Assembly: GCA_964395625.1 (NCBI GenBank)
Contig: CAYNAR010000003.1
Span: 5,857-69,856, forward strand
Origin: an uncultured Gammaproteobacteria bacterium
GTDB lineage: Bacteria; Patescibacteriota; Patescibacteriia; Patescibacteriales; WJLG01
Length of the DNA: 64,000 bases
Direction: 5' to 3'
This document shows, one piece after another, positions 3,001 through 63,048 of the stretch. Each line of letters starts with the position of its first letter. The first letter of the stretch is position 1. The position numbers and the translations under genes are program-made. The notes beneath the pieces were generated by a model. The model had not been told where the DNA came from, did not search any database, and was given only the letters and a program-made list of their open reading frames with translations.

Positions 3001-6000
3001 CCGAATACAATAATCAGAACAGTAATAGTTCTTATTTTGGCGTGTCTTCCGAGGAGTCCTTATCGGCAGGCGTCAATCCCATAACCGTTTTAAGGATACC
3101 AGATTCAGTAGTTGGTTATAAATGGCGCGCCATGACTTGTAATAGTGATGGTTGCAGCGATTGGGTTTCTTACAATTTGGCTACGCCGAATTTTTATGTC
3201 GACGCGACATCTCCGACGAGACCTGGTAATTTGACGGTAGATAGTACCGCCACCGACAGAATGACGATTAATTTCGGCTCCGCCACTGTGGAGTCCAATT
3301 TCGCCTATTATCGTATATATTATCATGTCGGCACGACGACCGATCCGAGGGAGACTGATTTTGTTTGGGATTCTTTTTCCGACCCGAATCTTGCCAGCCG
3401 TACTTTTAACGGCGCGGGATCCACTACAATAACCAATCTTCTACCGAATACGTCGTATTCTTTCTTGATATTCGCCTATGACTTAGCTGGCAATAAAGCT
3501 AGTAGTTCGGTCCGCGCTTATTCTAAGACGAAATTCTATGCCGCCAATCCGAGTAATCTTCAGCAATGGAGGAATAGCACCGAGTTAATAGAGAATGGTG
3601 GTTGGACAAATAGTAGTACCGTTCAGTTTTTAGCTACTTCCACAGGGGCTCAGGGTACGGTTTACATGTATTATGAAGTTTTAGCTAATGGCTCCTCCTT
3701 TATAACGTCGACTTCCACACCGGCTTCTTATTGTAGTTCGGGGACATCTTTTGGTTCGTGTGCTTCGAGAGTTTGGCGCGGTCAGGGTTCTCGTGTTTTT
3801 GTTCCGGGTCTCCCTGATTCGGCGACCGGGTATAAATGGCAAGTTATATCTTGTAATGAAGATACTTGTTCGAAGAATTGGACTGTTTTCAATGCTTCAC
3901 AGCCTAATTTCATGGTCGATACCGTCGCTCCGACGGTTCCTGGTAATTTGACTATAGACGCCGTCAGTCCGACTACGATTACTTTGAATCTCGGTTCTGT
4001 TGTAACAGAATCGAACTTTGCCGAATACAAGATATATGCCAGACCCGGCGCCGGTGTCACGGAAAGCGACTACCTCTGGGGTTCTTCTTCTGATTCCGAT
4101 CTTTCGTCCCGTACTTTTAATGGAACTGGCTCGACCACTGTGACCGGATTGACCGCTTCCACGACGTATTATTTTAATATATGGGCTTATGACTTAGCCG
4201 GAAACAGGACGAAGGCTTTAGTGGAGGCATATCGTTCGACTCAGGGAGGCTTGTTCAATCCAAGCAGTTTAGTGCAGTATTATCGAGACACTCCTTTGTC
4301 GAATGGAGAGTGGACTAGTTCTTCGACTGTTGGTTTTTCGGCTACGTCCTCTAATTCCGGAGGCTACACTTTATTGTATTACCAAGTCATCGCCGCCAAC
4401 TCCAGCTTCACAACCGCCACAACTACTCCTGGCTCACCTTGTTATACAGGTACTAACTATGGGGCGTGCGTTTCCAAAGTGTGGTATGATGCGAACACTG
4501 ATGCATCGAGCTGGTATAATTTATCGTATCCTTATCGTGTCAGAGTGACGACTAATAATTCCAAGGTCGATGCCGATTTGACCGATTTTCCGGTTTATTT
4601 GAATCTTTCCGTCCTTGGCGTCAATAGCCCTTTTTGGAACAATGTGAAAAGCAACGGAGGCGATATCTTGGTTACTAATTCTTCCGGTACACGTTTGCCT
4701 TTGGAGTTGGTCTCCATTTCTACTACAAATAAGACTGGCGAAATGTATTTTAAGGGTAATTTGAATAATAACTCGGATACCGATTTCTATATATATTATG
4801 GATATGCTGCAGCCACACAGCCGGCTTCCACGACGACCTATGGCTCGCGCAATGTTTGGACCAATGGATATCGCGGTGTTTGGCATTTGAGCGAATCAGC
4901 AGGTTCTACAGCGGTACGCGACTCTACTAGTTACAGCAATCATAGCTCCGCTATTTCCGGCCCTACTCTCGGTTCTTCCGGAAAAATCGGCACGAGCGTT
5001 TTGTTTAGTGGTGCCAATAGGATTTTAATCCCGACATCTAATAATTTAGAGCCAGCTAGGAACCTGGTGTTTTCGCTGTGGATAAATAGGTCCGCTACAC
5101 AAAATACTTGGGCTAAGCCTTTATGGTACGGCTCCAATGCCACCAATCCTTACCCAGCCTATGGTTACGAGTTCAATGACACCTCCGATACGGATATAGT
5201 CGCGTCAGTCATAGCTGGTGGTGCCAGAAGAACGGTCACCCCTTATACGACTTCCGCCGGCACTTGGGCTTATTTAGTGGCTTCGTATGACGGAACTACG
5301 TTGCGTTATTATGCTAACGGTTCTGAGTATGCTCAAACCGCTTACACTGGCACTATCTCCAATTATGATAATACGAGTGGTCTCGGTATCGGCGACAGAT
5401 ACGAGACTGGTCAAGGTTATGCCGGTTATGTCGATGAGGTTCGTATAGCTTCTACCACTAGGACTTCCGGTTGGGTGTCGACGGAGTATAATAATATGAA
5501 TTCTCCGGAGACATTCTTCTCTACCGGCACAGCCACATCTTTCCCGTTGCCGTATAAGAGTATTAAAGTAAATTCCTTCCCTCAGTCGTCCATAGGTTAT
5601 AAATGGCGCGTCTTAGCTTGTAACCAGTATTCTTGCTCCAAAAATTGGACGGATTTCAACGTGACCACTCCCAACTTTAAAGTCGATACCACAGCCCCGA
5701 CGGCTCCTGGTAATTTGACTTTGGCGGGTCGTCGTACCGATACGATAGTTCTTGGCTTTGGTAGCGCTTCTTCCGAATTACACTTCTCGCAATACAAGAT
5801 ATTTTGGAAACAAGGAATGTCCGGCGTGACGCAATATGATAATTTACATGGTTCTTCTACTGATATTAATTTGGCCAATATAAATTATAATAGTGCCTCG
5901 ACGACGGAAATATCCGGACTTTTGCCGAATACTCGTTACGTGTTCAATATTTTTGCTTATGACCAAACTGGTAAGATTGCCAGTGCCACCGAACAGTCAT

Positions 6001-9000
6001 TCCAAACATCCAACTTAGTTACGGAGACATATAGTTACACATCAGGATCTTCTGCTGGTTGGATCAACAGCCCATACGCTTGGGATGGCAATGATGATAC
6101 TTACGCCTATCGTGATATACCGGGATCTTCGGCTAATGATTCCTCGTCCTATCTGCTGGGCGCAGCCAATAATGCTGTTAATTCCACCAAAAAGATATTA
6201 ATGGTCGAAATGGGATTAGAGGGGTATAGTCAGGATAGCGATGCCATGGATTTTGTAATCCAGCCGATATTCTTAGGTTTAACGGCTGGTGCGACGTCGA
6301 CTTTGGATGGTTCCTTGTATGGTCGTATCGACGGTGACGGTACTTATTATGTCGATATAACCTCTGATGCCAATGCGCCGGCATCTTGGACGTGGAACGA
6401 TGTCATTAATCTCGATGCCAGAGTCTATGGCCTCAACTCTTCATCTACCAATGTCAGAGCATATGTTGATCAAATCCGTTTGCGCATCGCCGTCGATGCT
6501 TTCCCTGAGGTTGTGACCAATCAGGAGCAGAGATATGCCAACGGAACGACTTCGATACCGGTCGATTCTTGGATTAACGCCGATTCGTTGAACCTAAAAG
6601 CGGAAGGCAAGGATCCGGATTCTCTGGAGAAATTATTCCTTTATTTCCAACTCGTTCCGACGACCACATCCTTTATAACCTCGACATCTACCAAGTCTAT
6701 TGGTGCTTGTAGTTTTGGTACGGCTTACAATTCATGCACTTCGACCGTTTGGACCGCTGCCTATGTTGGTGATCCTAGAGATTTCAGCGTCGTTCCTTTC
6801 GTCGGATCGACTACTGTCACGTCGATACCCGATGGCTCTTATAAATGGCAAGTCATTGCTTGCGACGATGATGATGTTTGCTCTCCGTCATGGACGAGAT
6901 TCTCCGCTTCTTCCACTCATGTCAGAGTCGATACGACTAAGCCGGCTTCCCCGGGAGGTTTGTCGTTTGTCAGTCATAATAGCGGTTCGATAGTGATATC
7001 GTTCGGCGCTCAGACGGTGGAGGATAATTTTGCCAGATATCGTATATATTATAGAAAGAGTTCGACGACTGCGCCTATGGAGTCCGATTTAGAGCATGCC
7101 GATAGCAATCTTAATTATATAGATTATAATGGAGCGGCCACGACTACCATTTCCGGTTTATCCAAATCTTCGGAGTATCTAATAAATATTTGGGCCTATG
7201 ATAGAGCTGGCAACAAAGCTTCGGCTACGGTTCCGCTTTTGGCTTCGACGACTGACGGCTATATTTTATCCGAGACTTCTTATTTGATAGAGAATGACGA
7301 CGGAGCTTCTGTAAATTTGAACACTTCCCCGAGTCTTGCCAATGTTCCTTTATCCGGCGTCGAGAAAGGACAGAGGGTCAATGTTCGTTTCCAGATACAA
7401 AACACCGGCTTCGACCAGACTTACAATAAGCGTTACAAGATACAGTATGAGAACAATACAGATTACCCTGGACTTTGGTACGATGTCGGAGGAAGTTCCG
7501 ATATAGCTTATTCCTACGGTCTTTCCGGTGCTAATGGAGACGCCATAACATCGGCTAAAGGATCTGTTAACGGCAATATTTGGGTCAATGGCCTCTGGCA
7601 AGAGGGGACTGGATTATCCAATTTCTACAATTTGGCGGTCAATAGTTATACCGAAATAGCTTTCTCTTTGCAGACGGTCAATGCTATCGCCGGCAAGACT
7701 TATCGTTTAAGGGTTATAGACGGTTCCGGATCATCTACGTTGGAATCTTTCTCCAATTATCCTGCTTTGACGATGACAAGTTCTCCTGTTAAAAGGTATT
7801 CCAAAAACGCCGTTTCTTCCTTGCCTTCCGGATATAGCGATTTGACTTATTATCTTGATAACCAAGGTTATTTAGATACGGCTTCGAATAATGCTTCTCG
7901 TGATAGTATTATCGGTTCTCCTTCTTTTATGGTGTTTAATTTTGTTTCCAAATTGGGCAACTACGATTATGGCTTGAGCGCCTCTTGGGATGGCCAGACT
8001 ACGCTTTCACCGGCCACCAATCCGGTCTTCTTGCAAATTTATCGCTTTGGCACGGTTAACTCTTGGGTTACTGTCACGAGTAATAATTCAGCCGCTATCA
8101 ATACCGACTTTACTTTAGCCGGCTCCGTTAGCTATCAAATGGAGGATTATTTCGATTCTAATTTCAACACTTATTGGCGCGTCTACCAGTCTTCCGGTAG
8201 CGGAACTTTGCGTACTGATTATTACAATCTATCCACTACGACGCTTTCTTCTTACGTCAGCCAGAACCATTATCGTTGGCGCAACGACGATGGCTCAATT
8301 GGTTATAACAATTGGTATAATGATGATTACACCTATAGAAGATTGGTGACATTAGATAATTCTCTTGTTCCTGGACGCAGTAATCAATCGGAATTCACCG
8401 TTTTGATTTCCATGACTGACCTATATTTGCGCTCCACCGCTTTTTCTGGGCACGTTCAAAACTCTTCGGGCTATGACATTCTTTTCACTAGCGCTTCCGG
8501 TACGGCCGTGAAATTGGATTATGAGATAGAGAAGTATACGCCATCGACAGGAGAATTGGTTGCTTGGGTTAGGTTACCGGCCTTATTCCCTCTCAATGAT
8601 ACATATATATACATGTATTATGGCAATGCGACCACTACGGCATCCCAGGAAAATATTTCCGGAACATGGGGTTCTAATAATAGGGCTGTTTGGCACTTAG
8701 ACGAGAGTGGGGCCTCTACGACCAGAAACGATTCTACGGCTAATGCTAACAATGCTTCGACCGAAGGTTATGATGGCGACGAGGATACGGCTACCAATAT
8801 AGATGGCACCGACGATTTTGACGGAACTAATGATCATTTATCCGTAGTCGATAGCAATTCTTTAGATATAACGAGCGGTGTAAGCATATCAGGTTGGTTC
8901 AACCCGGATAATACGGCGACCTTGGGTAGTTTGACTTCCGGAGGATACGCTCAATATCAATTAGTCGGCATGAGATGGGGCGCTACCGGAGCCACCGATT

Positions 9001-33680: not shown

Positions 33681-33710
33681 AGAACGGATTGATCCGTTCT
33701 TTATTTTTTT
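33679..33710. terminator. Bidirectional rho-independent terminator.
   Basis: agaacgga-ttga-tccgttct flanked by an A-run on the left and a T-run on the right. It serves the + strand ftsB-like gene and the - strand tRNA-Thr/structured-RNA transcript. Confidence 0.8.
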
Positions 33711-33729
33711 GAGCCGAAAGTGGGATTTG
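33708..33729. repeat. Direct repeat (22 nt, tttgagccgaaagtgggatttg) of the tRNA-Thr 3' end. The second copy is at 33865-33886.
   Basis: Exact 22-mer at both positions. A partial inverted copy (caaatcccac) is at 33823-33832. Confidence 0.85.
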
Positions 33730-33856
33730 GTCACAACTCTCGTCGGCTTCCGCCTTCTCGGTCGCGACCCCAGCTCGCGGTTCTCGGCGCCAAAATTGCG
33801 CCTCGAACATCGCTCCGCTTTTCAAATCCCACATTGAGCCAAGAAGTTGGCTCAAT
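33711..33856 (-). ncRNA. Candidate structured RNA or palindromic insertion element of unknown class, GC-rich, lying between tRNA-Thr and the terminator.
   Basis: Minus-strand RNA features, in order: a 5' hairpin GAGCCA-ACUUCU-UGGCUC; a 10-bp closing helix GUGGGAUUUG/CAAAUCCCAC; GCGG/CCGC; a hairpin UUCGAGGCGC-AAUUUUG-GCGCCGAGAA with tandem G.A/A.G; and a hairpin GGUCGCGAC..GGC-GGAA-GCC..GUUGUGACC with a GNRA loop. The core is much more GC-rich than its surroundings. Confidence 0.45.
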
Positions 33857-33868
33857 TTATATAATTTG

Positions 33869-33940
33869 AGCCGAAAGTGGGATTTGAACCCACAACCTAC
33901 GGTTTACGATACCGTTGCTCTACCGTTGAGCTATTTCGGC
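33869..33940 (-). tRNA. tRNA-Thr (anticodon CGU).
   Basis: Hand-folded cloverleaf: GCCGAAA/UUUCGGC acceptor, U8A9, D stem GCUC/GAGC with GG, anticodon stem ACGGU/ACCGU, loop AU-CGU-AA, T arm GUGGG-UUCAAAU-CCCAC, discriminator U. CCA is not encoded. Confidence 0.9.
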
Positions 33941-48971: not shown

Positions 48972-51437
48972 ATGGATTTCAATCAAGAACAAAAGGAAAT
49001 AATCGATAGCGTCTTCGGGGTCTATCTTCTTTCGGCTCCGGTAGGGACCGGCAAGACTACGGTTCTGACCGAGCGCGTGATCAAGGCCTTGGAGAATGGC
49101 GTCAAGCCGGAGGAAATTTTATGCCTCACTTTCACTAATCGCGCCGCCGAGGAGATGTCCGATCGCATTCGTGCTCGTGTCGGAAAGAAAGAAGTGAGCG
49201 ACTTGATAACTACCAAGACTTTTCATGGTTGGTGCGCTTATTTTTTGAAGGCCGAGGCCAAAGAGATCGGTTTATCGCGCGACTTCGCCATCTTCGAGGA
49301 AGAGGAGCAGCGTGAGGTGATGAGACAGATTTTGTCGAAACACCCGGAATTTCCTATTAATGAAGAAAAAGAAGGACGCGAGATATCGGAACTGATCGAG
49401 CGCATCTACGATTGGGAGTTGCTCAATTTGAAAAAGCAGATCGGTGTCAAGATAGAGGAGAAGGATTTAGACAAGACCGTGTCCGCCATCGCCGTCGAAT
49501 ATCGTCAGACACTTTCCGATCAGCACGCTTTGGATTTCAACGAGCTGGTGCTTTTGACTTTACGTGCTTTGTATTTGAATGAGAATATTAGGAAGAAATG
49601 GCAGGATAAATATCGTTTCGTGCAATTGGACGAATTTCAGGATACGCATTTGTCGGAATATTTGGTCGTTAAGGAATTGATTAAGAATCACAAGAATGCC
49701 GCATTTATCGGCGATTTGGACCAAACTATTTACTCTTGGCGCGGCAGTCAGCCGTTCTTTTTAAAGAAATTGATCCAAAGCCACTTTCCGGAGTTCAAGG
49801 AGATGAGTCTGACCACTAATTATCGTTTCAACCCCAATGTCCTATCGGCGGTAAAATCTTTTTTAGGTAGCTTCATTAAGCCGGAGACTAAAGAATTGAA
49901 GACTCTGAAGAGCGACGATGTGGTAGAGCCTGCCGTTTCTGTTTTTGGCGCTCACAATTTCAACGAAGAGATGTCTTACGTGATAGACAGGATAGAGAAG
50001 GTTAAAAAGGATAATCCCGATGAGCGATCCGTAGTCATCGCGCGCGCTAATTATTTGATTAATCGCGCCGCCGAGGTCTTCGAGCAAAAAGGCGTGGCTC
50101 ATATCACGGTTGATAAATACGAATTCTTCCGTCGTCAGGAGGTTAAGGATGTCTACGCTTATTTGAAGATAATCTTCAATCGTTTCGATTTGGAAGCCTC
50201 CTATCGTTTGGTCAAAAGGCCGCCGCGCAACATTGGTGCCACCACGATGAAAAACATCATTGATCAAGGTTCTTGCGGTCTTAAAGTTTCCGATTTTTTG
50301 AATTTCAGAAATTATAAATACCCAGAACCTTTTTTTGACTTGGCCAATCGTTTCGCCAAGGGTCGCGTAGTGGTTCTCGATACCGAGACTACCGGCACCG
50401 ACCCGTTTCGCGACGATATAATTCAGGTTTTTGCGGCTGAGGTCATTAATGGACAGGTCGGCCGTCGCTTCCATCATTATATGAAGAATGATGTGCCGGT
50501 CGGCTTTTCGGAGTCGGTTCACGGTATTTCCGATGAATTTTTGAAAGAGCAAGGCGAGGAGCCCGCTAAGATTTTGCAAGAATTGAAGGAATTTTTGGCC
50601 GACAGTCCGCCGATCGGTCATAACGTCAATTTCGACTTGGCGATGATCAGGGAGAACGGCAAGAGGCGAGGCGTGGATTTTGAATTCAAAGAATATTACG
50701 ATACGCTCGATTTGTCTCGTCGTTTAGTGGATTCGCCGAACTATCGTCTCGGAACCTTGTCCGAGATGTTCGGTCTCGCTAGTGCCACGCACGACGCGCG
50801 CGACGATGTGGATGCCACCATCGGTCTTCTCGGCGTGTTGGTGAGGATGCTGTCCAAAGGAGCGCCACAGCGCATGACTCTATGGCAAGAACATTCCGGC
50901 AAGTTTTTAAAGTTGGCCACTCTGATAGACTCATGGCAGAAGATAGTCGAACATTTGCGTCCGGCCGCGGTTTTGGAAAAGATTTGGGAAGAGTCCGGTC
51001 TACGCGAGTATTATGATAACGACGATGAAGCGGATAGACGACGTAAATCCGTAAAAGAATTGAAAGACGTGTTCGAGGAAAAGGATGATTCCGCGAAGAG
51101 GGCGGAAGCGTCTTTGCGAGAGTTGATCCATTACGCGGCCTTGGTCAAGGATATAAATTTCATCGGTCTGGAAAAAGGCAAAGTGCCGATAGTCACGGCC
51201 CATCAAGTGAAGGGTTTGGAGTTCGACCATGTCTTCGTCATCGGCGCTAACGAAAGGACTTTTCCCAATTATCGATCGGATTTGGAAGAGGAGAGGAGAT
51301 TGTTCTATGTCGCTCTGACGCGCGCCAAGAAAAAAATCTATTTGACGTATAGTAAGTTCAGTGATTACGGTTCACCGCAGGCGGCGAGCAGGTTTATCGA
51401 TTGTATCGATGAGAGGTATAAAGAAGTGGTTTTTTAA
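48972..51437 (+). CDS. UvrD/PcrA-family superfamily-1 helicase with an embedded DnaQ-like DEDDh 3'-5' exonuclease domain.
   Basis: Helicase motifs: 'APVGTGKTTVL', 'CLTFTNRAAEEM', 'VQLDEFQDT', 'IGDLDQTIYSWRG', 'TNYRF', 'TAHQVKGLEFDHVFVIG', 'RRLFYVALTRAKK'. Between motifs IV and V lie 'VVVLDTETTGTDP..DDIIQV', 'IGHNVNFDLAMI' and 'HDARDDVDAT', which are Exo I/II/III with His. Confidence 0.88.
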   Translation: MDFNQEQKEIIDSVFGVYLLSAPVGTGKTTVLTERVIKALENGVKPEEILCLTFTNRAAEEMSDRIRARVGKKEVSDLITTKTFHGWCAYFLKAEAKEIGLSRDFAIFEEEEQREVMRQILSKHPEFPINEEKEGREISELIERIYDWELLNLKKQIGVKIEEKDLDKTVSAIAVEYRQTLSDQHALDFNELVLLTLRALYLNENIRKKWQDKYRFVQLDEFQDTHLSEYLVVKELIKNHKNAAFIGDLDQTIYSWRGSQPFFLKKLIQSHFPEFKEMSLTTNYRFNPNVLSAVKSFLGSFIKPETKELKTLKSDDVVEPAVSVFGAHNFNEEMSYVIDRIEKVKKDNPDERSVVIARANYLINRAAEVFEQKGVAHITVDKYEFFRRQEVKDVYAYLKIIFNRFDLEASYRLVKRPPRNIGATTMKNIIDQGSCGLKVSDFLNFRNYKYPEPFFDLANRFAKGRVVVLDTETTGTDPFRDDIIQVFAAEVINGQVGRRFHHYMKNDVPVGFSESVHGISDEFLKEQGEEPAKILQELKEFLADSPPIGHNVNFDLAMIRENGKRRGVDFEFKEYYDTLDLSRRLVDSPNYRLGTLSEMFGLASATHDARDDVDATIGLLGVLVRMLSKGAPQRMTLWQEHSGKFLKLATLIDSWQKIVEHLRPAAVLEKIWEESGLREYYDNDDEADRRRKSVKELKDVFEEKDDSAKRAEASLRELIHYAALVKDINFIGLEKGKVPIVTAHQVKGLEFDHVFVIGANERTFPNYRSDLEEERRLFYVALTRAKKKIYLTYSKFSDYGSPQAASRFIDCIDERYKEVVF

Positions 51438-51459
51438 AGTTATTTTTCTTTTTCTTATT

Positions 51460-51497
51460 GCGAGCATTAAAAAATCTCCGTATTTTTCGATGCTCGC
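51460..51497. repeat. Palindromic intergenic repeat unit (GCGAGCATTAAAAAAT ... ATTTTTCGATGCTCGC).
   Basis: gcgagcattaaaaaat-ctccgt-atttttcgatgctcgc is a hairpin of about 16 bp with 2 mismatches, 23 nt after the helicase stop. The same half-site recurs at 54287, 54597 (inverted) and 56557. Confidence 0.8.
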
Positions 51498-51582
51498 AGT
51501 AATGTAAGAAAAATAAATAAAGTATTTTATTTTTCATTTTTATTTTGATATAATTTATAATTCATAACTCATAATCGACCAT

Positions 51583-54212: not shown

Positions 54213-54236
54213 ATTTCTTTTTTGTACATTCAATCG

Positions 54237-54266
54237 CCCTGCTGTGGAATATCAGCAGGGTTTTTA
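54237..54266 (+). terminator. Rho-independent terminator.
   Basis: ccctgctg-tggaatat-cagcaggg followed by ttttt. Confidence 0.85.
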
Positions 54267-54286
54267 TTTATTGCTTTTTCCTTGTG

Positions 54287-54612
54287 GCGAGCATTAAAAA
54301 ATTAGGAAGAGACCGTAGACGTAAAAACCGTGTCCCGTCTGCGGGACTAGGTTTTATAGACGAAGGTCCCTAATTTTTCGCCGCGAGCTACTTTTTGGTA
54401 CTTTTTTGAAAAGTACATATAAAAAAATGTATTTATCTCGCCACTTTTCAAAAAGTGGCACAAAACTGCTCACAGAAAAAATCTCCTAATTCTCACTAGG
54501 AAGCCTAGTAAATTTTCTATACTCACCCCGACCTCAAGGGCTCGGGGCTCAAACAACGAAAATTTACACGGCTTCTACGTTCGCATTTTAACGTAGATTT
54601 TTTAATGCTCGC
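54287..54612. repeat. 326-bp non-coding element bounded by perfect 16-bp terminal inverted repeats (GCGAGCATTAAAAAAT / ATTTTTTAATGCTCGC) and packed with internal hairpins. It may be MITE-like or a nested REP-like element.
   Basis: TIRs at 54287-54302 and 54597-54612, with a degenerate internal right end 'atttttcgccgcgagc' at about 54374-54389. Internal hairpins: gtcccg-tctg-cgggac, gtactttt-ttg-aaaagtac, gccacttt-tcaa-aaagtggc, ctagg-aag-cctag, ccccga..tcgggg, ctacgt..acgtag. There is no ORF. Confidence 0.7.
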
Positions 54613-54728
54613 TATAAGGAAGATAAGACACGTGATGTTTATTTATTTTATTTGTATAGCACAATAAAGATTTTCTTGCTAAATTTTCAACGTTTAGTTA
54701 ATATTAAATTAAACATTATATTATTTTT

Positions 54729-56546
54729 ATGAAACCTCAAGAACTACGCCAAAAGTACTTAGATTTTTTTAAAGAAAACGGACATTCCGCCATAAAAAGC
54801 GCCTCTTTGATACCGGAAAACGACCCGACAGTGCTTTTTACTACCGCTGGCATGCATCCTTTAGTGCCTTATTTGATGGGCGAGACCCATCCGGCCGGTA
54901 AACGCTTGGTCGATGTCCAGAAATGCGTCCGCACCGACGATATCGAAGAGGTTGGTGATAATCGCCATTTGGTTTTCTTTGAGATGATGGGTAATTGGTC
55001 GCTTGGTGATTATTTTAAGCAAGATTCTATAAAATGGAGCTTCGAGTTTTTGACTTCGCCGAAATGGCTGGGTTTGGATATTAATCGTCTGGCCGTCTCC
55101 GTCTTTGCCGGTGATAATGACGCCCCTTTCGATCAGGAGGCCTTCGACCTTTGGAAAGAACTTGGTATTCCGGAGAAGAGGATTGCTAAATTGCCAAAAA
55201 AGAACAACTGGTGGGGTCCGGCTGGCGTGACTGGTCCATGTGGCCCGGATACGGAAATATTTTACTGGACGGGGGATGCCGACAAGACGCCAGAAAGTTT
55301 CAATGATGACAATGACCTTTGGGTGGAGATTTGGAACAACGTCTTCATGCAATATAACAAGAAGGCCGATGGCACTTTCGAGCCTTTGGCGCAGAAGAAT
55401 GTGGATACCGGAATGGGCATGGAGAGAATTTTTACCGTAATAAAAGGCCAAAAAACTGTCTTTGATACCGATTTATTTCAACCATTGATAAAGAAGGTCG
55501 AGGAATTGTCCGGTAAAAAATACGGGGAGAACGAGGAAGACGACCGTTCTTTTAGGATTATCGCCGATCATTTACGCTCTTCCGTGTTTATAATAGGAGA
55601 CGAAAGAGGAGTTCCGCCGAGTAATACCGGTGCCGGTTATATCGTTCGCCGTTTGCTTCGCCGTGCCGTGGTCCACGGTCGTCGCTTGAATATATCCGCT
55701 TCCGCATGGCTTTCTTCCGTCGCCGAGATGGTTATTGGTGACTATAATGAGGCCTACCCTGAATTATTAGCCAATAAGGAGTTTATTTTAAATAATGTTA
55801 GCGAGGAAGAGTCGAAGTTTGAAAAGACATTGGAGAATGGTCTTAAAGAGTTCAATCAGCAATGCGAAACTTTGACTTGCAAGATGGAAGATAGTGACGA
55901 CATAAGTGTCACCATTCCCGGCGATATGGCCTTTATGATGTTCTCTACTTTTGGTTTTCCTATAGAATTGATCAGGGAGATCGCCAAAGATAAGAAAATG
56001 ACCATCGACGAAGCCGGTTTTGCCGAGGAATTCAAGAAGCATCAAGAGCTTTCTCGCACAGCTTCCGCTGGTATGTTTAAAGGTGGTTTGGCTGATGCTA
56101 GCGAAGAGACAAGGCGTTTGCATACCGCCGCCCACCTTCTTTTGGCTTCTTTGCGTCGTGTTCTTGGTCCTCATGTTCTTCAAAAGGGTAGTAATATAAC
56201 GGCGGAACGTCTGCGTTTCGACTTCTCTCATGGTGAAAAGATGACTTCCGAGCAAATCGCCGAAGTGGAGAGAATGGTCAATGAGACTATAGACAAGGAT
56301 TTGCCGATCGTTTGCGAAGAGAAAACTCTGGAGGAGGCCAGGAACCAGGGCGCGATGGGTGTCTTCGATTCTAAGTATGGGGAGATGGTCAAGGTTTATA
56401 AGGTGTGTTCCGGGGACGAAGTCGTCTCTTGCGAGATATGCGGTGGTCCTCATGCCGAGCGCACCGGCGAACTCGGTCATTTCAAAATAGCGAAGGAGGA
56501 GAGCTCTTCCTCTGGTGTGCGTAGAATAAAAGCCATTCTGGATTGA
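54729..56546 (+). CDS. alaS: Alanine--tRNA ligase, short form (catalytic, tRNA-recognition and editing domains; no C-Ala domain).
   Basis: 'LRQKYLDFFKENGH..I.SASL(I)P.NDPT(V)LFT.AGM..(L/F).PY(L)' and 'RHL.FFEMMGNWS(L)GDYFK'. Editing-site 'HTAAHLL' and 'CGGPH'. It has 605 aa and ends shortly after the editing domain. Confidence 0.93.
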   Translation: MKPQELRQKYLDFFKENGHSAIKSASLIPENDPTVLFTTAGMHPLVPYLMGETHPAGKRLVDVQKCVRTDDIEEVGDNRHLVFFEMMGNWSLGDYFKQDSIKWSFEFLTSPKWLGLDINRLAVSVFAGDNDAPFDQEAFDLWKELGIPEKRIAKLPKKNNWWGPAGVTGPCGPDTEIFYWTGDADKTPESFNDDNDLWVEIWNNVFMQYNKKADGTFEPLAQKNVDTGMGMERIFTVIKGQKTVFDTDLFQPLIKKVEELSGKKYGENEEDDRSFRIIADHLRSSVFIIGDERGVPPSNTGAGYIVRRLLRRAVVHGRRLNISASAWLSSVAEMVIGDYNEAYPELLANKEFILNNVSEEESKFEKTLENGLKEFNQQCETLTCKMEDSDDISVTIPGDMAFMMFSTFGFPIELIREIAKDKKMTIDEAGFAEEFKKHQELSRTASAGMFKGGLADASEETRRLHTAAHLLLASLRRVLGPHVLQKGSNITAERLRFDFSHGEKMTSEQIAEVERMVNETIDKDLPIVCEEKTLEEARNQGAMGVFDSKYGEMVKVYKVCSGDEVVSCEICGGPHAERTGELGHFKIAKEESSSSGVRRIKAILD

Positions 56547-56556
56547 TTTTGCTAAT

Positions 56557-56573
56557 CGCGAGCATTGAAAATT
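56557..56573. repeat. Variant half-site of the GCGAGCATT(A/G)AAAAT repeat family.
   Basis: gcgagcattgaaaattt lies 11 nt after the alaS stop. No inverted partner was seen nearby. Confidence 0.55.
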
Positions 56574-56743
56574 TCAGAGGTGTTGTTTTATGTGGTTTCT
56601 TGTACAAGGAGGTGTCGGCGAATAATCATGCCGATATGTGTTTTTTGAAAGCTTACGAAAGGTTTTAAAGGAAACGTTTTTTAAAAGTCTGTTTACTAAT
56701 ATTAGTGAAAAAAAGATTATTGTCTTTTTCCACTGGATAGAGC

Positions 56744-56772
56744 TTGACAATTAAACAAAACTTCTATATAAT
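56744..56772 (+). promoter_or_regulatory. Consensus sigma-70 promoter (TTGACA, 17-nt spacer, TATAAT) for the infA-rpmJ-rpsM-rpsK-rpsD-rpoA-rplQ operon.
   Basis: ttgaca-attaaacaaaacttcta-tataat lies about 85 nt upstream of infA. Confidence 0.7.
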
Positions 56773-56856
56773 CCTTAAATACAAAGGTAAAAGACTAATT
56801 TTAAAACTTAAAATAAGCAATTTACCAATAGTTAGGTTTGGTAATTTTTTTTGTTA

Positions 56857-57099
56857 ATGTCAGAAAACAAAAATAATCAAGCAGCAAATTCCAAAGACTT
56901 CATTGAAATGGAGGGTGAGGTTTTGGAGTTGATGCCCGCCGCCAGTTTTCGTATCGCTCTTACCAGCGGTCACGAGATATTGGCCCACTTATCCGGAAGA
57001 ATGCGGATGAATAAAATTCGTCTGGCGGTTGGAGATAGGGTCAAAGTACAGATTAGCCCTTATGATCTTACCAAAGGTAGGATTACTTTCCGTCTATAA
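56857..57099 (+). CDS. infA: Translation initiation factor IF-1.
   Basis: '[64 protein letters not shown]' is an S1-like IF1. The ATG at 56857 is preferred over the TTG at 56851. Confidence 0.93.
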
Positions 57100-57139
57100 T
57101 CAGCTTATTTTTAAAATTCACTTTTAATTTTCATAGAAT

Positions 57140-57253
57140 ATGAAGGTCAGAGCCAGCGTTAAAAAAATTTGTAAAGATTGTAAAGTGGTCCGTCGCAAGG
57201 CCAGAGTTTGTGTTATTTGCAAGAATCCTAAACATAAACAAAGACAAGGGTAA
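57140..57253 (+). CDS. rpmJ: 50S ribosomal protein L36.
   Basis: Not in the ORF track because it is under 60 aa. Translation '[37 protein letters not shown]' is the canonical L36 zinc ribbon. Confidence 0.93.
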
Positions 57254-57274
57254 AATTATTAGCATTATATAATT

Positions 57275-57670
57275 ATGGCGCAAGCAAGAATAGCCGGTGT
57301 AAACATTCCGAGCGAAAAAAAAGTCAAAATTTCTTTATCTTATATCTATGGTATCGGTCCTGCCAGAGCTATGGATGTATTGAATGAGGCCAAAGTCGAT
57401 CCTGAAGAGAGGGTGAAGAATCTCACTGAAGCCCAGGTTAATAAGCTAAGAGATATTATTGAGAAGAAGTATGTCGTCGAAGGTGATTTGAGAAGAGAGA
57501 TCGTCGGCAACATCAAGCGCATGAAGGAAATCGGCGCTTATCGCGGTTTGAGACATGCCAAGGGTTTGCCTGTTCGCGGTCAGACCACTAAGCGTAACAG
57601 TCGCACTGTTCGCGGTAACGTTAGAAGGACGGCTTCCTCTGGAAGAAAACCGGCCGCTCAGAAGACCTAA
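57275..57670 (+). CDS. rpsM: 30S ribosomal protein S13.
   Basis: 'ARIAGVNIP..K.V.ISL.YIYGIG...A' and 'YRGLRH..GLPVRGQ.TK.N(S)RT'. Confidence 0.95.
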   Translation: MAQARIAGVNIPSEKKVKISLSYIYGIGPARAMDVLNEAKVDPEERVKNLTEAQVNKLRDIIEKKYVVEGDLRREIVGNIKRMKEIGAYRGLRHAKGLPVRGQTTKRNSRTVRGNVRRTASSGRKPAAQKT

Positions 57671-57698
57671 ACTTTTGCATAAATAGATTCAATATAAT

Positions 57699-58301
57699 AT
57701 GACTGAAGAGAAAAAGGATATCAAGGTGGCGGCAGAGGCCAAGACCGAAAAAGAAATCAAAAAAGAGATCCCGGTGGAACCGGAAGTTTCTTTGGATTTT
57801 GACGATGAACCGGATACCGATTCTTCTGGCGATAAGAAGCCGTTGATGGATACCGAGGAGTTGCCTGATGAAATCAAGAAGAAATTGGAGAGCCGCAAGG
57901 AAGAGAAATCCGGAAAGAAATTCAAGAAGAAAAAGAAGAAGGTTAGAACCGGTGTCGATGTCGGCAAGATTTACGTCAAAGCCACCTATAACAATACCAT
58001 AGTCACCGTGACCGATTTGAACGGTAACGTCATCTCTTGGGCTAGCGCCGGCATGGCCGGTTTCAAGGGCCCGAAGAAGGCTACCTCTTACGCCGCTCAG
58101 ATCATCACTAAGATCGCTTTGATCAAGGCTAAGGAAGATTTCGGTTTCAAGGAAGCCAGCGTCTTCGTCAATGGTATCGGCACAGGTCGCGAGGCCGCTA
58201 TCCGTTCCGTCAATGCCAATGGCATCAACGTAACCTCTATTAAAGATATTACCCCAATACCTCATAACGGCTGCCGTCCAAAGAAGCCGAGAAGAGTATA
58301 G
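57699..58301 (+). CDS. rpsK: 30S ribosomal protein S11 with an N-terminal acidic/lysine-rich extension of about 70 aa.
   Basis: Core '[46 protein letters not shown]......A...G.....V.V.G.G.GREAAIR......[19 protein letters not shown]'. The N-terminal 'MTEEKKDIK...KKFKKKKKK' is additional. Confidence 0.9.
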
Positions 58302-58319
58302 TTTATCAATAGTCCACTT

Positions 58320-58952
58320 ATGAAAAATATCGATCCAAAGTGCAAACAATGCCGTCGTATCGGCGAGAAGCTGATGCTCAAGGGTGCCCGTTGCAACTCC
58401 ACCAAGTGCGCCATGTCCAAGCGTCCTTTTCCGCCAGGTTTCCATGGTCCTAAATCCAAGGGTCCTGCTAAGAAGAGCGATTACGCTAAACAGCTCACCG
58501 AGAAGCAGAAGGCTAGAAAGCAATATTTGTTGTCCGAGAAGCAATTCGGGATAATCTTCGATAAGGCCGCTAAGAAAGTCGGTAACACCGAGAAGTTGTT
58601 GATTCAACTCTTGGAGATGCGTTTAGATAACGTCGCTTATCGTTTGGGATTCGCTTTGTCTCGCTCCGAGGCCAGACAATTGGTCAATCATGGTCATTTC
58701 ACCGTCAACGGACGCAAGGTCACTATCCCTTCCTTCAAGACTAAGACTGGCGATGTCATCAAGATGAAGGCCGCTTCATTGCGCAGCAAGAAGTTCGCCA
58801 ATCTTTCCGAGCGCATCAAGTCCGTCGACATCCCTGGTTGGTTGCATCTTACCTTGGACGATCTTTCCGGCAAGGTCTTGCATGAACCTTCCGCCAAGGA
58901 TTTGAAGACGAACCTCGATCCACACGTGATCGTCGAGTTCTATTCTAGATAA
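58320..58952 (+). CDS. rpsD: 30S ribosomal protein S4.
   Basis: 'CKQCRR.GEKL.LKG.RC...KCA', 'Y..QL.EKQK....Y', 'LE.RLDNV.YR.GFA.SR..ARQLV.HGH..VNG..V.IPS'. Confidence 0.95.
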   Translation: MKNIDPKCKQCRRIGEKLMLKGARCNSTKCAMSKRPFPPGFHGPKSKGPAKKSDYAKQLTEKQKARKQYLLSEKQFGIIFDKAAKKVGNTEKLLIQLLEMRLDNVAYRLGFALSRSEARQLVNHGHFTVNGRKVTIPSFKTKTGDVIKMKAASLRSKKFANLSERIKSVDIPGWLHLTLDDLSGKVLHEPSAKDLKTNLDPHVIVEFYSR

Positions 58953-59001
58953 TTTAATTTTTCTAATACCTCCCCTCATTAACAAGGAGGGCTGAAATTC
59001 T

Positions 59002-59832
59002 ATGGAATCCATCGCCAAACCAAACAAAGTAGAGTTTTTAAAGGGACAGAATCCTAACGAGGCCACTGTGGTCGTTGGTCCTTTTTATCCCGGCTACGGG
59101 ATGACCATCGGCAATTCTTTGCGTCGCGTGCTTTTGTCTTCTTTGGCCGGAACTGCCGCCGTTGGTGTTAAAATCGAGGGCGCCAGTCATGAATTCACTT
59201 CCTTGCCACATGTTAAAGAGGATGTCTTGCAGATAATTTTGAATTTGAAGAAGTTGAAGGTCGAATTATTGATCGAGACTGAAGAGGAGATTAAATTGGA
59301 GTTGGACGTTCGCGGTAAGAAAGAGGTCGTTGCCGGAGATATCAGCAAGGACTCTCGTATCAAGATCGCCAATCCGGATTTGGTCATTGCCAACATTACG
59401 GACATGGCCGGTTCCTTGAAGATGGAAATCACCATCGCTAAAGGACGCGGTTATCGCCCGGTCGAAGCCATCGAGGCCAAAGACAAGAAAGGCGAAATCG
59501 GTTATATCGATATGGATGCCATTTTCTCCCCGGTCCTTTTGGCCGGCTTGAAGGTGGAGAACGTTCGCGTCGGTAAGATGACTAACTGGGATAAGTTGAG
59601 CATTCAAATCATCACTGATGGCACTATAACCCCTGAAAAGGCTTATGATGATGCCGTTAAGATATTGCAGGATCAAGTCAGTGCCTTGACCGCCGGTCAG
59701 AGCAATGAAGAGACTGTTGTTTCCGATGAAGTCGAGTCTTCCGAAGAGGCCGAAGAGATCGCCGAGGAGTTCGAAGAGGAGGATGAAGAGCCAAGAAAGG
59801 AGAAAAAGTCTAAAAAGGCCAATAAAGAATAA
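59002..59832 (+). CDS. rpoA: DNA-directed RNA polymerase subunit alpha, N-terminal (assembly) domain only. The C-terminal domain is replaced by a 45-aa acidic tail.
   Basis: 'GPFYPGYGMTIGNSLRRVLLSSLAGTA..GVKIEG..HEF......V.EDV..IILNLK' and 'RGYRP'. The sequence ends '..ALTAGQSNEETVVSDEVESSEEAEEIAEEFEEEDEEPRKEKKSKKANKE'. No '(L/I)ELSVRS.NCLK' HhH motif is present. Confidence 0.9.
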   Translation: MESIAKPNKVEFLKGQNPNEATVVVGPFYPGYGMTIGNSLRRVLLSSLAGTAAVGVKIEGASHEFTSLPHVKEDVLQIILNLKKLKVELLIETEEEIKLELDVRGKKEVVAGDISKDSRIKIANPDLVIANITDMAGSLKMEITIAKGRGYRPVEAIEAKDKKGEIGYIDMDAIFSPVLLAGLKVENVRVGKMTNWDKLSIQIITDGTITPEKAYDDAVKILQDQVSALTAGQSNEETVVSDEVESSEEAEEIAEEFEEEDEEPRKEKKSKKANKE

Positions 59833-59853
59833 AAAGTTAGTAGATAAAATATT

Positions 59854-60204
59854 ATGAGACACAGAAAGAAAAAGGTAACCCTAGATAGGAAGACAGAGGC
59901 TCGTGGCATGTTGCTACGCAATTTAGCTTCCAGCGTTTTGATTTACGAAAAGGTCAAAACTACCGAAGCTAAGGCTAAGGCTGTCAGAAGCAGGGTCGAA
60001 AAGATGATTACCTTGGCAAAGGCCGGTGATTTGGCCTCTACCAAGAGATTAATCGCTTATTTGCCACAAAAGACTGCGGTCACCAAAGCTATCGAAGTTT
60101 TAAAGAGTCGCTACGAAAATCGCACTGGAGGCTATACTCGCATCGTCAAGATCGGTTCTCGCCAAGGTGATGGTGCTAAAGTAGTGATGATAGAATTAGT
60201 GTAA
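59854..60204 (+). CDS. rplQ: 50S ribosomal protein L17.
   Basis: 'MRHRKK...L.R....R..(M)LRNLA.S.(L)..E.(V)KTT..KAK..R...E(K)(M)IT.AK' and 'GGYTRI.K...R.GD.A'. Confidence 0.93.
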   Translation: MRHRKKKVTLDRKTEARGMLLRNLASSVLIYEKVKTTEAKAKAVRSRVEKMITLAKAGDLASTKRLIAYLPQKTAVTKAIEVLKSRYENRTGGYTRIVKIGSRQGDGAKVVMIELV

Positions 60205-60213
60205 AAAATTTAT

Positions 60214-60561
60214 ATGGAAAGAAAAGTTCATAAAATAGACGCCAGCGAACAGGCCCCGGGAAGACTTGCTTCTCGTATCGCCATTTTGTTGCGCGGAAAG
60301 AATAAGCCGACCTATCGTCCTCATATCGATGAGGGTGATATAGTCGAGGTGACCAATGCCGATAAGATAAAAATTACCGGCAAGAAGTTGATCCAGAAGA
60401 ACTACTACCGTGCTTCTCAATATCCGGGCGGTCTCAAGACCATTCCGATGTGGAGAGTCAAGGAGAAGAATCCGGGCGAGGTCATCATAAGAGCTGTCAA
60501 ACAGATGTTGCCAGCCACCAAGCTCCGTCCTGGTATGATGAAAAGATTGATTATTAAGTAA
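60214..60561 (+). CDS. rplM: 50S ribosomal protein L13 (short form).
   Basis: 'GRLAS.IA.LLRGK.KP.Y.PH.D.GD.V.V.NA.KI..TG.K...K.YY' and 'AVK.MLP...L...M...L'. Confidence 0.92.
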   Translation: MERKVHKIDASEQAPGRLASRIAILLRGKNKPTYRPHIDEGDIVEVTNADKIKITGKKLIQKNYYRASQYPGGLKTIPMWRVKEKNPGEVIIRAVKQMLPATKLRPGMMKRLIIK

Positions 60562-61122: not shown

Positions 61123-61935
61123 ATGATCGGTGTCTTCGATTCCGGTGTCGGCGGCTTGACTGTCCTCAAATCTTTGTTGGAGTATTTGCCAGATTACGAC
61201 TATATTTATTTAGGCGACAATGGTCGCGCGCCATACGGAAATAAAACTAAAGAGCAGGTCTACGAGTATACCCGCCAAGCGGTCGATTTTTTATTCAGAC
61301 AAGGTTGCGACTTAATCGTCGTGGCGTGCAATACCGCTTCGGCTTTGGCTTTGCGCAAAATCCAGCAAAGCTATCTGCCGAAGAAATATCCTGGCAAGAG
61401 AGTCTTGGGTGTGGTGCGTCCGATGGCCGAGGCGATCGCCGACTTACACGGCATCGAGAAGGTCGGAATAATCGCGACCAAGGCTACGATAGCTTCGCAT
61501 ATCTATCACCACGAGATGAGGAAGCTGAGTTCTAGCAAACATGTAATAAGTCGAAGTGCCCCTTTGCTTGTCCCATTGATCGAGGGCGGTTCCACGGACG
61601 AAGCGAAGATCGAGGATGTTTTGAACGGATATTTATCACCACTCAAGAAAGAGAGAGTCCAAGCTTTGGTTTTAGGTTGTACGCATTATCCTTATTTACA
61701 AGATCAGATTTGCCAAATAATGGGTAAGGGTTGTAAAGTGTATAATTCCGGAGAGATAGTCGCCAAATCTTTAAAGGATTATTTGCGTCGTCACAAGGAA
61801 TTGGGCGTCAAGAGATCGATGAAATCGAAAGTGGAGTTTTATACGACCGGGAATGCCGAGAAGTTCAAGTCGCTAGGGGAGAGGTTTTTGAATAAGAGAA
61901 TCGTAAAAATTAAGAATGTCGATTTGAAATGGTAG
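61123..61935 (+). CDS. murI: Glutamate racemase.
   Basis: 'IGVFDSGVGGLTVL', 'Y.YLGDN.R.PYG.K', 'VVACNTASA', 'LGCTHYP'. Confidence 0.93.
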   Translation: MIGVFDSGVGGLTVLKSLLEYLPDYDYIYLGDNGRAPYGNKTKEQVYEYTRQAVDFLFRQGCDLIVVACNTASALALRKIQQSYLPKKYPGKRVLGVVRPMAEAIADLHGIEKVGIIATKATIASHIYHHEMRKLSSSKHVISRSAPLLVPLIEGGSTDEAKIEDVLNGYLSPLKKERVQALVLGCTHYPYLQDQICQIMGKGCKVYNSGEIVAKSLKDYLRRHKELGVKRSMKSKVEFYTTGNAEKFKSLGERFLNKRIVKIKNVDLKW

Positions 61936-61959
61936 GGGTAAAAAAATAATATTTTCAGT

Positions 61960-63048
61960 ATGGATAATTTGTTGGATAGGATAAATAGTCTAAAAAAACG
62001 CTTGGCTGATGTCTGGCGCGTTTTGAATTTGGAGGATTCGAAGGCTAAACTGATCGAGAAGCGTAAGGTTATGGAAGAAGCGGATTTTTGGTCCGATCAG
62101 GAGAGGGCGGTTAGGGTCAGTAAAGAGGCGGAGGATTTGGATAAAGAAACGAAGAAATGGGATGGAATCAAGTCGGAGATGGATAATCTATTCGATTTGG
62201 TCAATGAGGCAATAAGCGAAGAGGATAATTCTTTGGAAAAGGAGATAAATAGCAGTTTGACCGACTTGGAGAAGCGTTTCGAGGATTTGGAATTCTTCGC
62301 TTTGTTTTCCGGCAAGTACGATCGTAATAACGCGATACTTTCTATCCATGCCGGTACCGGTGGCGTGGACGCACAGGATTGGGCGCAGATGCTCGAGCGT
62401 ATGTATTTGCGTTTCTTCGAGAGTAAAGAGTGGCGCGCGGAAATACTCGATTTGACTCCCGGCAACGAGGCCGGCATCAAGAGCGTCACGATAAAAGTCG
62501 ATGGTCTGTGGGCCTTCGGGCACTTGCGCTCCGAGGCCGGCGTCCATCGCTTGGTGCGCATCTCGCCGTTCGACGCCGAGGCGATGCGCCAGACTTCTTT
62601 CTCCTTAGTCGATGTGATGCCGGAGTTCGACGACGTCGACGATATCGATGTTCCCGATATCGATTTGAAATTGGAGACTTATCGTTCTTCTGGTGCCGGA
62701 GGTCAGAATGTCAATAAGGTCGAGACGGCCGTGCGTTTGATTCATATACCGACCGGAATCACGGTCAATTGTCAGACTCAGCGTTCACAGCATCAGAATC
62801 GTGAGCTGGCTTTGCGTCTCTTGAAGTCTAAGTTGAAAGAAAAGCAATTAGCCGAGCAGTCGGCCGAGCAGAAAGAGGTGCGTGGCGAGGTGCATAAGGC
62901 CGAGTGGGGGAGACAGATCCGCTCTTACGTCCTACAACCTTATCAGATGGTCAAAGATCATCGCACCGAGCATGAGACTTCGGACGTTCGATCGGTCTTA
63001 GACGGCGATATCGATTTATTCATCGAAGCTTATCTGAAGATGAAATAA
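61960..63048 (+). CDS. prfB: Peptide chain release factor 2, a single continuous ORF with no programmed +1 frameshift site.
   Basis: 'SPF' tripeptide ('VRISPFDA') and '[16 protein letters not shown](L)IH.PTGI'. The N-terminal region is in frame from the ATG at 61960. Confidence 0.92.

Follow-up and report, generated by a model that had tools for sequence, protein, structure and literature searches.

A possible MITE-like palindromic repeat, with a putative nested insertion, in the spacer upstream of alaS in a Patescibacteria lineage

Patescibacteria have very compact genomes, which are believed to contain few mobile elements. Reports of small palindromic repeats in these bacteria are scarce, and our search of the literature found nothing specific on the subject. 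The Correia elements of Neisseria, which are MITEs, combine terminal inverted repeats of ∼25–26 bp with a core of 100–150 bp; they are intergenic, occur in hundreds of copies and show clear TA duplications. Wilson and Sharp reportedly noted in 2006 that ERIC families include shorter, internally deleted forms as well as longer forms bearing insertions, and a TIGR-Tas preprint, later than the description cited below, is said to mention Patescibacteria. The criteria for MITEs that we have adopted are terminal inverted repeats of at least 10–15 bp, a size of 50–800 bp without a transposase, a target-site duplication of 2–10 bp, multiple dispersed copies, and empty sites or an autonomous element with the same ends (PMC11602168). 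ERIC-type repeats are intergenic and fold into long, stable hairpins; they end in TA, and their target duplications are TA as well (PMC2759123). TIGR-Tas systems comprise stem-loop arrays with variable palindromic stems (PMC12045711). Here we describe a hairpin-dense, non-coding element located upstream of alaS and weigh its likeness to these systems against other explanations of its structure.

The spacer upstream of alaS and the anatomy of the long element

The window, that is, the whole stretch of 64 kb of DNA that was analysed, is gene-dense, has nearly all its genes on one strand and a GC content of 38–49%, and encodes among others a giant surface protein and a short AlaRS of 605 aa. The best homologues of this AlaRS are 82% identical to it, and those that carry a name belong to Patescibacteria (candidate phyla radiation). 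The local gene order runs from a UvrD-like helicase through a 117-aa coiled-coil protein and two SLT-domain proteins to alaS, infA, rpmJ, rpsM and onward. Between the second SLT gene and alaS lies a spacer of 516 bp (SLT stop at 54212; alaS start at 54729), the longest and most strongly structured of the window, the other spacers containing ordinary terminators only. Directly to the left of the element, the terminator scan located the intrinsic terminator of the SLT-domain gene (54236–54261, + strand), with a 9-bp stem that includes 6 GC pairs and a T-run. To the right, consensus and conservation point to a candidate alaS promoter, TTGCTA-N17-TAATAT (54676–54704, + strand); this block is the sole part of the spacer conserved with related species and is the probable alaS promoter. 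The initial annotation had described the element as filling most of the gap between the SLT terminator and alaS, and both the size of the gap and the position of the terminator agree with that description. GC content is 0.40 in the element vs 0.24 in the remaining spacer.

The perfect 16-bp terminal inverted repeats that first drew attention to the locus were located as GCGAGCATTAAAAAAT at 54287–54302 and its exact reverse complement at 54597–54612. The inverted repeat is in fact longer than first reported, with arms of 25 nt at 54278–54302 and 54597–54621 that are 92% complementary, and the whole long element measures 344 bp (54278–54621). The left arm consists of an outer 9 nt, TTCCTTGTG, followed by the perfect 16-mer, while the right arm reads ATTTTTTAATGCTCGC plus TATAAGGAA and is the same in a second strain, L127, considered below. 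When up to three mismatches were allowed, the 16-mer motif matched seven times in the window, vs 1.4 expected, a number reached by none of 100 shuffles. Convincing matches among these seven are confined to both ends of the long element and both arms of a 38-bp unit situated 2.8 kb away.

Folding of the 344 nt gave −128.7 kcal/mol on the + strand vs −71.4 for shuffles (z = −12.1) and −137.4 kcal/mol on the − strand (z = −10.0). The predicted fold contains seven terminal hairpins and a closing stem of 23–25 bp, in line with the earlier count of at least six stem-loops. The − strand has 13 G-U pairs in its fold and the + strand 4; since shuffled controls differ by the same 9 kcal/mol, base composition accounts for this asymmetry, and a strand-specific signal on the − strand was discarded as an explanation. 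That both strands fold equally well relative to shuffles weakly favours a DNA palindrome over a strand-specific RNA. The region encodes no ORF longer than 39 aa, and the longest one, of exactly that size, looks spurious, which bears out the original view of the element as devoid of ORFs. A scan with a terminator consensus returned eight sites in the region vs 1.3 expected; hairpin E (54574–54597 plus TTTTTT, + strand) and the apex of hairpin A, both described below, score in it. As a whole, the element is far bigger than an intrinsic terminator, and it comes after a terminator of canonical form.

The internal organisation becomes simpler once a single piece is taken out. Without 54303–54482, the remaining 164 nt constitute one imperfect palindrome whose arms align end to end, with a minimum free energy of −73 kcal/mol (z = −11). 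The alignment of the core arms runs from the outer TTCCTT via GAAGCC..GTAAATTTTC to the apex hairpin CCCCGA...TCGGGG, and their consensus is TTCCTTATAGCGAGCATTAAAAAATCT(A/C)CGT.... The piece removed corresponds to a 173-nt insert, hereafter X (54303–54475), plus one of two copies of AAAAAAT. Read from the sequence, these copies, at 54296–54302 and 54476–54482, form a 7-nt direct repeat bracketing X, and removal of X with one of them restores the end-to-end palindrome, the arm alignment picking up again exactly at 54476–54482. The AAAAAAT pair could represent a target-site duplication. Insert X comprises a 70-nt hairpin A (54303–54372; apex GTCCCG/CGGGAC) and a domain B (54373–54475) with three small hairpins at 54398–54416, 54417–54432 and 54440–54459. 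The interior of the core (54483–54596) contains a small hairpin C (54484–54501), a long stem D (54502–54517 paired with 54558–54573; apex hairpin at 54526–54547) and a small hairpin E (54574–54597), which is followed by a T-run and was flagged as terminator-like on the + strand.

Insert X lacks terminal inverted repeats of its own. Comparison with the core, with the remainder of the window and with the related loci revealed no significant similarity, and the phage, plasmid and viral collections searched contained no match to X. The possibility that X is a diverged self-copy of the core was rejected, their similarity not being significant. Successive insertions had been suggested at the outset for this locus; the nesting geometry of that proposal is upheld by the 164-nt palindrome obtained after removal of X and by the AAAAAAT bracket, and the mobility it implied is putative. 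The interpretation of 54287–54389 as an expanded version of the 38-bp unit was right as to a relationship between that unit and the long element, but as a decomposition it is less well supported than a core plus X. The internal degenerate right end (54373–54388) is less convincing than first described: it matches the right arm of the short unit at just 12 of 16 positions, which is not significant alone because six of the matching positions are an A/T run.

A short sibling copy and a second strain

The short copy occupies ∼62 bp at 51451–51512 and consists of the 38-bp palindrome (51460–51497) with the paired flanks TTTCTTA and TAAGAAA. Its hairpin has a folding energy of −24.7 kcal/mol (z = −7.2). 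It lies 14 nt past the stop codon of the UvrD-like gene, upstream of the conserved AT-rich block that precedes the next gene, and no other terminator-like hairpin stands beside it in that spacer. Besides carrying the 16-mer, the short unit shares 31–39 nt with both ends of the long copy, that is, beyond the 16-nt repeat (z = 11–12); when the right end of the long copy (54591–54621) is reverse-complemented, it matches the left end of the short unit at 28 of 31 positions. The end consensus common to the long and short copies is TT(C/T)CTTAT(A/T)GCGAGCATTAAAAAATCT(A/C)CGT, and the 31-nt arm consensus is TTCCTTATAGCGAGCATTAAAAAATCTMCGT. The recurrence in the short unit of the internal string AAAAAATCTCC (54476–54486), already remarked upon in the initial annotation, was reproduced; the match of the internal AAAAAATCTCC-TAATTCTC to the short unit has p ∼0.013 by shuffling, and the similarity resumes at 54476. 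Judged from the sequence that they share, the 38-bp unit and the long element are truly related, and we read the short copy as a putative internally deleted sibling of the same repeat. Two other motif matches were considered and rejected. A half-site at 56558 reads GCGAGCAG, as does the homologous position in the related locus L001, and is therefore probably conserved sequence downstream of alaS and not a third family member; the inverted-repeat-like match at 57152 falls within the coding region of rpmJ and is attributed to chance.

Two related copies are thus visible in the 64 kb, and none of the searches returned a second instance of the interior of the long copy. The 2.1 kb readable beyond the window, in a species represented by short Logan contigs, held no family member, and the other contigs retrieved by exact-protein look-ups, L127 apart, are identical to the window or break off early. 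Scans of the databases for copies relied on exact patterns. With the short 16-mer as pattern, the genome collection gave at least 120 chance matches, and among the matches listed none had a partner arm or interior similarity. The 22-nt arm consensus matched nine times in the metagenome collection, never with a partner arm (0/9); three of the nine (L131, L136 and L139) are homologous to one another and sit in a different hairpin context. Scans of the viral collection with the arm and three interior probes returned one chance match and otherwise none, and BLAST against phage and plasmid collections found no match to the element. A Pfam scan of the 35 larger ORFs of the window detected no transposase, integrase, Y1 transposase (Y1_Tnp) or Nop/Tas-like domain.

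The element is also present in L127, a Logan contig from another sequencing run that shares 99.73% identity with the window across 11.8 kb. Exactly three differences separate the two strains within or beside the element, all of them in the left arm and within 12 nt, and none was found from 54296 to 60428. Two of them, 54284 G>A and 54286 G>A, turn the outer 9 nt of L127 (TTCCTTATA) into the exact complement of TATAAGGAA in the right arm; in the window strain, these two positions of the outer stem form G-U pairs on the + strand. The third, 54295 T>C, adds a mismatch (C-A on the + strand) and introduces the same base as in the right arm of the short unit. The terminal arms of L127 are accordingly complementary at 24 of 25 positions. 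This clustering in one arm fits template-switch correction or gene conversion between copies, either of which may have been at work, although three sites are too few for proof.

The ends of the element in L127 read ...CCTTATA / GCGAGC...GCTCGC / TATAAGG, with TA or TATA on either side, whereas in the window strain the left flank is GTG and the right flank TAT. The search for target-site duplications proposed in the initial annotation gave no unambiguous duplication: the window flanks are GTG and TAT, and the TATA of L127 is not separable from an extension of the inverted repeat because it is itself palindromic. The companion search for empty sites yielded none, since the sole other strain found carries the element and the empty-site pattern had 0 matches in the metagenome collection.

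Origin of the element and competing explanations

We would give an even chance to the element being a lineage-specific, non-coding palindromic repeat akin to MITEs, ERIC or Correia elements, composite in nature and with a nested insertion; in appearance it comes closest to a fairly ordinary kind of DNA, selfish or neutral, and not to an RNA gene of a known type. On this explanation, the basic unit would be an imperfect palindrome of ∼164 bp. The copy upstream of alaS would have gained the 173-nt insert X in its left arm, bracketed by AAAAAAT, reaching 344 bp, and the copy after the UvrD-like gene would have lost its interior, leaving ∼62 bp; we infer these directions for the insertion and the deletion. 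The element, presumably non-autonomous, may have arrived or spread as DNA, through transposition in trans or recombination between copies, and intrastrand template switching or gene conversion might maintain or restore the complementarity of its arms. A function is probably lacking, and the host would be affected at most incidentally, for instance through stable hairpins in RNA that reads through the interval from the SLT-gene terminator to the alaS promoter. Both copies lie in spacers between the end of one gene and the next gene, which may be the few insertion-tolerant places of an operon-packed genome. As a counterpoint to this reading, function instead of tolerated insertion could be the reason why several species have palindromes at the same two spacers. 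A multi-branched junction with a 25-bp closing stem, moreover, also resembles a structured RNA.

It seems unlikely to us that the element is a free-standing, species-specific gene for a structured non-coding RNA of ∼300–340 nt, shaped as a multi-way junction with a long closing stem and perhaps itself derived from repeat hairpins. Such a gene would be in keeping with the extremely stable fold (z = −12), its seven hairpins and 23–25-bp closing stem, and with a GC content well above that of the surrounding spacer. Hairpin E with its T-run is terminator-like on the + strand, and TTGCTT-N17-TTAAAA at 54271–54299, picked out by eye and absent from the promoter scan, could be a promoter; a start there, however, would leave the left arm outside the RNA and the perfect repeat unexplained. 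The two outer-stem substitutions between the window and L127 give G-U pairs on the + strand, a point in favour of an RNA, but the third difference is a C-A mismatch on that strand, and both strands fold equally well against shuffles. The interior is invariant between the two strains, an observation that carries no information because they differ by 0.27% overall. Searches for a known RNA family led no further. At the gathering threshold, Rfam returned two tRNAs only for the whole window, both elsewhere, a result matched by the tRNA/tmRNA scan (two tRNAs, both away from the element), and gave no match in seven related loci. With E values up to 10, the best sub-threshold hits in the spacer were miRNA and sRNA models with 15–23 bits against thresholds of 51–245. 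The Infernal/Rfam check advised in the initial annotation was thereby carried out: no family matches the element, and there is no homologue in the related species from which covariation could be derived. RNase P, T-box and 6S RNA, considered because of motif resemblance, were dropped as no model matched. The element is located upstream of the conserved alaS promoter and is therefore not a leader.

A structure selected in cis at this spacer, whether it serves as a terminator (back-up or bidirectional), insulates transcription or binds a protein, with fast turnover of sequence and retention of structure, seems to us as unlikely an explanation of the element as an RNA gene. We examined seven related loci (L001, L004, L140, L141, L143, L146 and L147), whose AlaRS proteins are 73–82% identical to that of the window. 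All seven keep the synteny and have a canonical terminator after the SLT gene. The block TTGCTA-N17/18-TAATAT occurs upstream of alaS in L001, L004, L140 and L141, a promoter-like site with a different spelling in L146, and none was identified in L143 or L147. Their SLT–alaS spacers are shorter (113–305 bp), and neither these spacers nor their palindromes contain sequence homologous to the window element. Nevertheless, every one of the seven spacers has a strongly folding segment of its own, which in five lies between terminator and promoter. L001 and L141 carry a hairpin of ∼115 nt, and L140 a multi-hairpin block of ∼190 nt with a 23-bp closing stem. The hairpin of L004 measures ∼160 nt and is rich in AT, whereas L147 has two domains rich in GC. 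In L146, the segment is a GC-rich block adjoining the alaS start, and in L143 it is a perfect hairpin of 14 bp. In addition, the spacer after the UvrD-like gene, where the short unit lies in the window, contains a nested palindrome of 175 nt in L001. The two palindromes of L001, one in each spacer, have their own 23-nt arm motif in common and, therefore, species-specific families occur there too.

Selection in cis would be consistent with folding segments in the same spacer in 7/7 loci without sequence homology, with a palindrome after the UvrD-like gene in both the window and L001, and with several hairpins of the element scoring terminator-like; in the window, that second spacer has no other terminator-like hairpin. 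Against it, a canonical strong terminator already lies ahead of the element in every genome, and the segments vary widely in size, shape and position, from the 14-bp hairpin of L143 to the 344 bp of the window. Moreover, a palindrome is missing from the UvrD spacer of both L146 and L147, and the three hairpin differences between L001 and L141 include none that is compensatory (0/3). The recurrence at the same position across species is what selection in cis best explains. There may be a small chance that, in this clade, a large hairpin module is always present both in the terminator–promoter interval upstream of alaS and in the spacer behind the UvrD-like gene, its sequence being replaced from species to species while the structure persists. 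Such a module could belong to a previously unrecognised, fast-evolving class of structured RNA or DNA whose function is tied to its position (an insulator, for instance, or an RNA that RNase III processes and that is linked to alaS expression), or it could be the outcome of an active process that both generates and corrects palindromes in these minimal genomes.

The palindromes could also have been made in situ by template switching during replication, through inverted duplication and quasipalindrome correction, as by-products of local mutation. This would agree with the position of all three L127 differences within 12 nt of one arm, two of which jointly perfect the outer stem. Similarly, the three differences between the hairpins of L001 and L141 all fall in the left arm, L141 having the more perfect palindrome, and each species displays its own sequences at the same sites. 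Two loci of the window, however, share 31–39 nt of arm sequence, for which copying between loci is needed, and no sequence in the neighbourhood corresponds to insert X (173 nt) in inverted form. Template switching in situ is therefore the best explanation for the arm-clustered substitutions, but not for the sharing of arms between the two loci, and as an account of the whole element it appears quite improbable. Finally, the idea of a TIGR-type array of stem-loop guide RNAs, or of some other CRISPR-like array, retains next to no probability and is effectively refuted. With TIGR arrays, the region has in common a dense succession of variable palindromic stem-loops in non-coding DNA (PMC12045711). 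A TIGR-Tas array would be expected to adjoin a Tas gene with a Nop domain and to repeat a regular unit of two spacers with box C/D-like motifs. Here the neighbours encode an SLT-domain protein and AlaRS, none of the 35 larger window ORFs scanned contains a Nop/Tas-like domain that could stand for a Tas gene, and neither a regular unit nor a periodicity is seen in the layout of hairpins and repeats.

If the element is a MITE-like repeat, as we favour, it would be a marker of recent DNA mobility in this lineage and a worked example of growth by nesting and shrinkage by internal deletion. It would also call for caution in annotation, as hairpin-dense spacers of these genomes need not be RNA genes. 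For the present, the window element is a tidy but ordinary case of non-coding repeat biology. The recurrence across the clade could be more than ordinary, and unrelated palindromes at the same two spacers in different species would be of greater interest if they were functional or arose by a special mutational process.

Comparison with described repeat classes

The initial annotation had called the element MITE-like, and part of this assignment holds. The terminal inverted repeats (16 nt perfect; 25 nt at 92%, or 24/25 in L127), and the size of 344 bp with a longest ORF of 39 aa correspond to the features listed above for MITEs. As to copies, the 64 kb contain two related ones, of which one is truncated. 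A clean target-site duplication and an empty site do not appear, nor does a transposase among the window ORFs scanned. Neither empty sites nor an autonomous partner turned up in one other strain, in the metagenome search with the empty-site pattern or among the window ORFs, which together represent a very limited sampling.

REP, BIME and REPIN sequences are short imperfect palindromes that occur in high copy number and are mobilised by RAYT transposases. The resemblance to them resides mainly in the short copy, a 38-bp imperfect palindrome just past the end of a gene and with a species-specific sequence, while the long copy can be viewed as a mosaic of palindromic units. Membership of the REP/REPIN class is contradicted by the presence of one 38-bp unit only, by the lack of a conserved 5′ GTAG and by the absence of a RAYT (Y1_Tnp) from the window ORFs scanned. 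The arms of the long element, in addition, are 294 nt apart, far wider than in a REPIN. The Correia elements have in common with the locus terminal repeats of ∼25 bp and an intergenic location close to promoters and terminators, and the ends seen in L127 (CCTTA/TA...TA/TAAGG) may be TA ends. The locus differs from them in having two copies in 64 kb and an ambiguous TA duplication.

With ERIC and IRU (RU-1), the family shares the character of non-coding imperfect palindromes of ∼100–170 bp that form a single stable hairpin, lie between genes and beside them, and have TA at their ends (PMC2759123). Unlike ERIC, it has two copies here instead of tens to hundreds, shows no sequence similarity to that family and resides in a Patescibacteria host, and its 173-nt insert exceeds the core arm and is itself multi-hairpin. 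The deleted and inserted forms reported for ERIC nonetheless recall the pattern encountered at this locus, with its forms of 62 bp, 164 bp and 344 bp.

Palindromes and structured blocks in related species and metagenomes

Among the related-species loci, whose AlaRS proteins are 73–82% identical to that of the window, L001 carries large palindromes of its own (positions 3159–3333 and 5811–5908) in the same two spacers as in the window, namely the one after the UvrD-like gene and the one between the SLT-domain gene and alaS, respectively. The inner stem of one of them is a perfect 21 bp, and both have in common the string TCGCTCAA(G)ATGA(A/T)GAAAAAAT. In L146 (5764–6000) and L147 (5696–6000), which belong to more distant relatives, structured GC-rich blocks of 95–190 nt appear upstream of alaS, for which no match was found in Rfam. 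Since the L146 block is located 3' of a promoter-like site and immediately ahead of the alaS start codon, it may represent a candidate leader RNA.

The scan with the 22-nt arm consensus also matched three unrelated metagenome contigs (L131, L136 and L139), which have in common a conserved block of ~60 nt containing CTTATTGCGAGCATT(C/T)AAAAAT. This block fits the arm consensus, which was itself the search pattern, but appears in a hairpin context unlike that of the 344-bp element, lacking a partner arm. In L131 and L136 it is followed by the perfect 20-nt palindrome CAAAAATTTATAAATTTTTG, from which L139 differs at two positions.

Neighbouring genes, strain differences and assembly

The UvrD-like helicase encoded at window positions 48972–51437 (821 aa) contains an inserted RNase_T-type 3'-5' exonuclease domain (residues 467–619), an architecture also found in related loci. 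At the left end of the window, an ORF of 3967 aa (6–11909) with Laminin_G_3, fibronectin type III and DUF2341 domains encodes a giant surface protein, a kind of protein associated with Patescibacteria.

When the window was compared with L127, a Logan contig from a second strain, 23 of the 29 substitutions and the sole indel (3 nt) were located within 0.9 kb (61146–62050), a stretch that spans the gene for Asp/Glu racemase and the beginning of prfA. This concentration of most of the differences suggests a putative recombination tract. L005, a Logan contig (SRR11845625) of the same strain as the window, starts at window position 54666, so that the short-read assembly is interrupted 45 bp beyond the right end of the element, and an exact-protein look-up returned no copy on record of the SLT protein encoded upstream of it. 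Taken together, these data indicate that the element region assembles poorly, owing either to low coverage or to the repeat.

A direct repeat at tRNA-Thr

The sequence TTTGAGCCGAAAGTGGGATTTG forms a perfect 22-nt direct repeat at window positions 33708–33729 and 33865–33886, the second copy overlapping the 3' end of the tRNA-Thr gene (33868–33940, minus strand). The 135 nt between both copies lie within a strongly folding spacer of 49% GC, and the same tRNA-Thr fragment occurs inverted at 33717–33729 and 33823–33835. Such an arrangement resembles the scar that a very small integrated element would leave at its attachment site.

A palindrome at the probable alaS promoter

A perfect 10-bp palindrome, TTAATATTAA, lies at window positions 54698–54707, where it overlaps the probable alaS −10 box, and is kept in the related-species loci L001, L004, L140 and L141. 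Because AlaRS of E. coli binds a palindrome at its own promoter and thereby represses its own gene, TTAATATTAA could, by analogy, constitute a putative autoregulatory operator of alaS.
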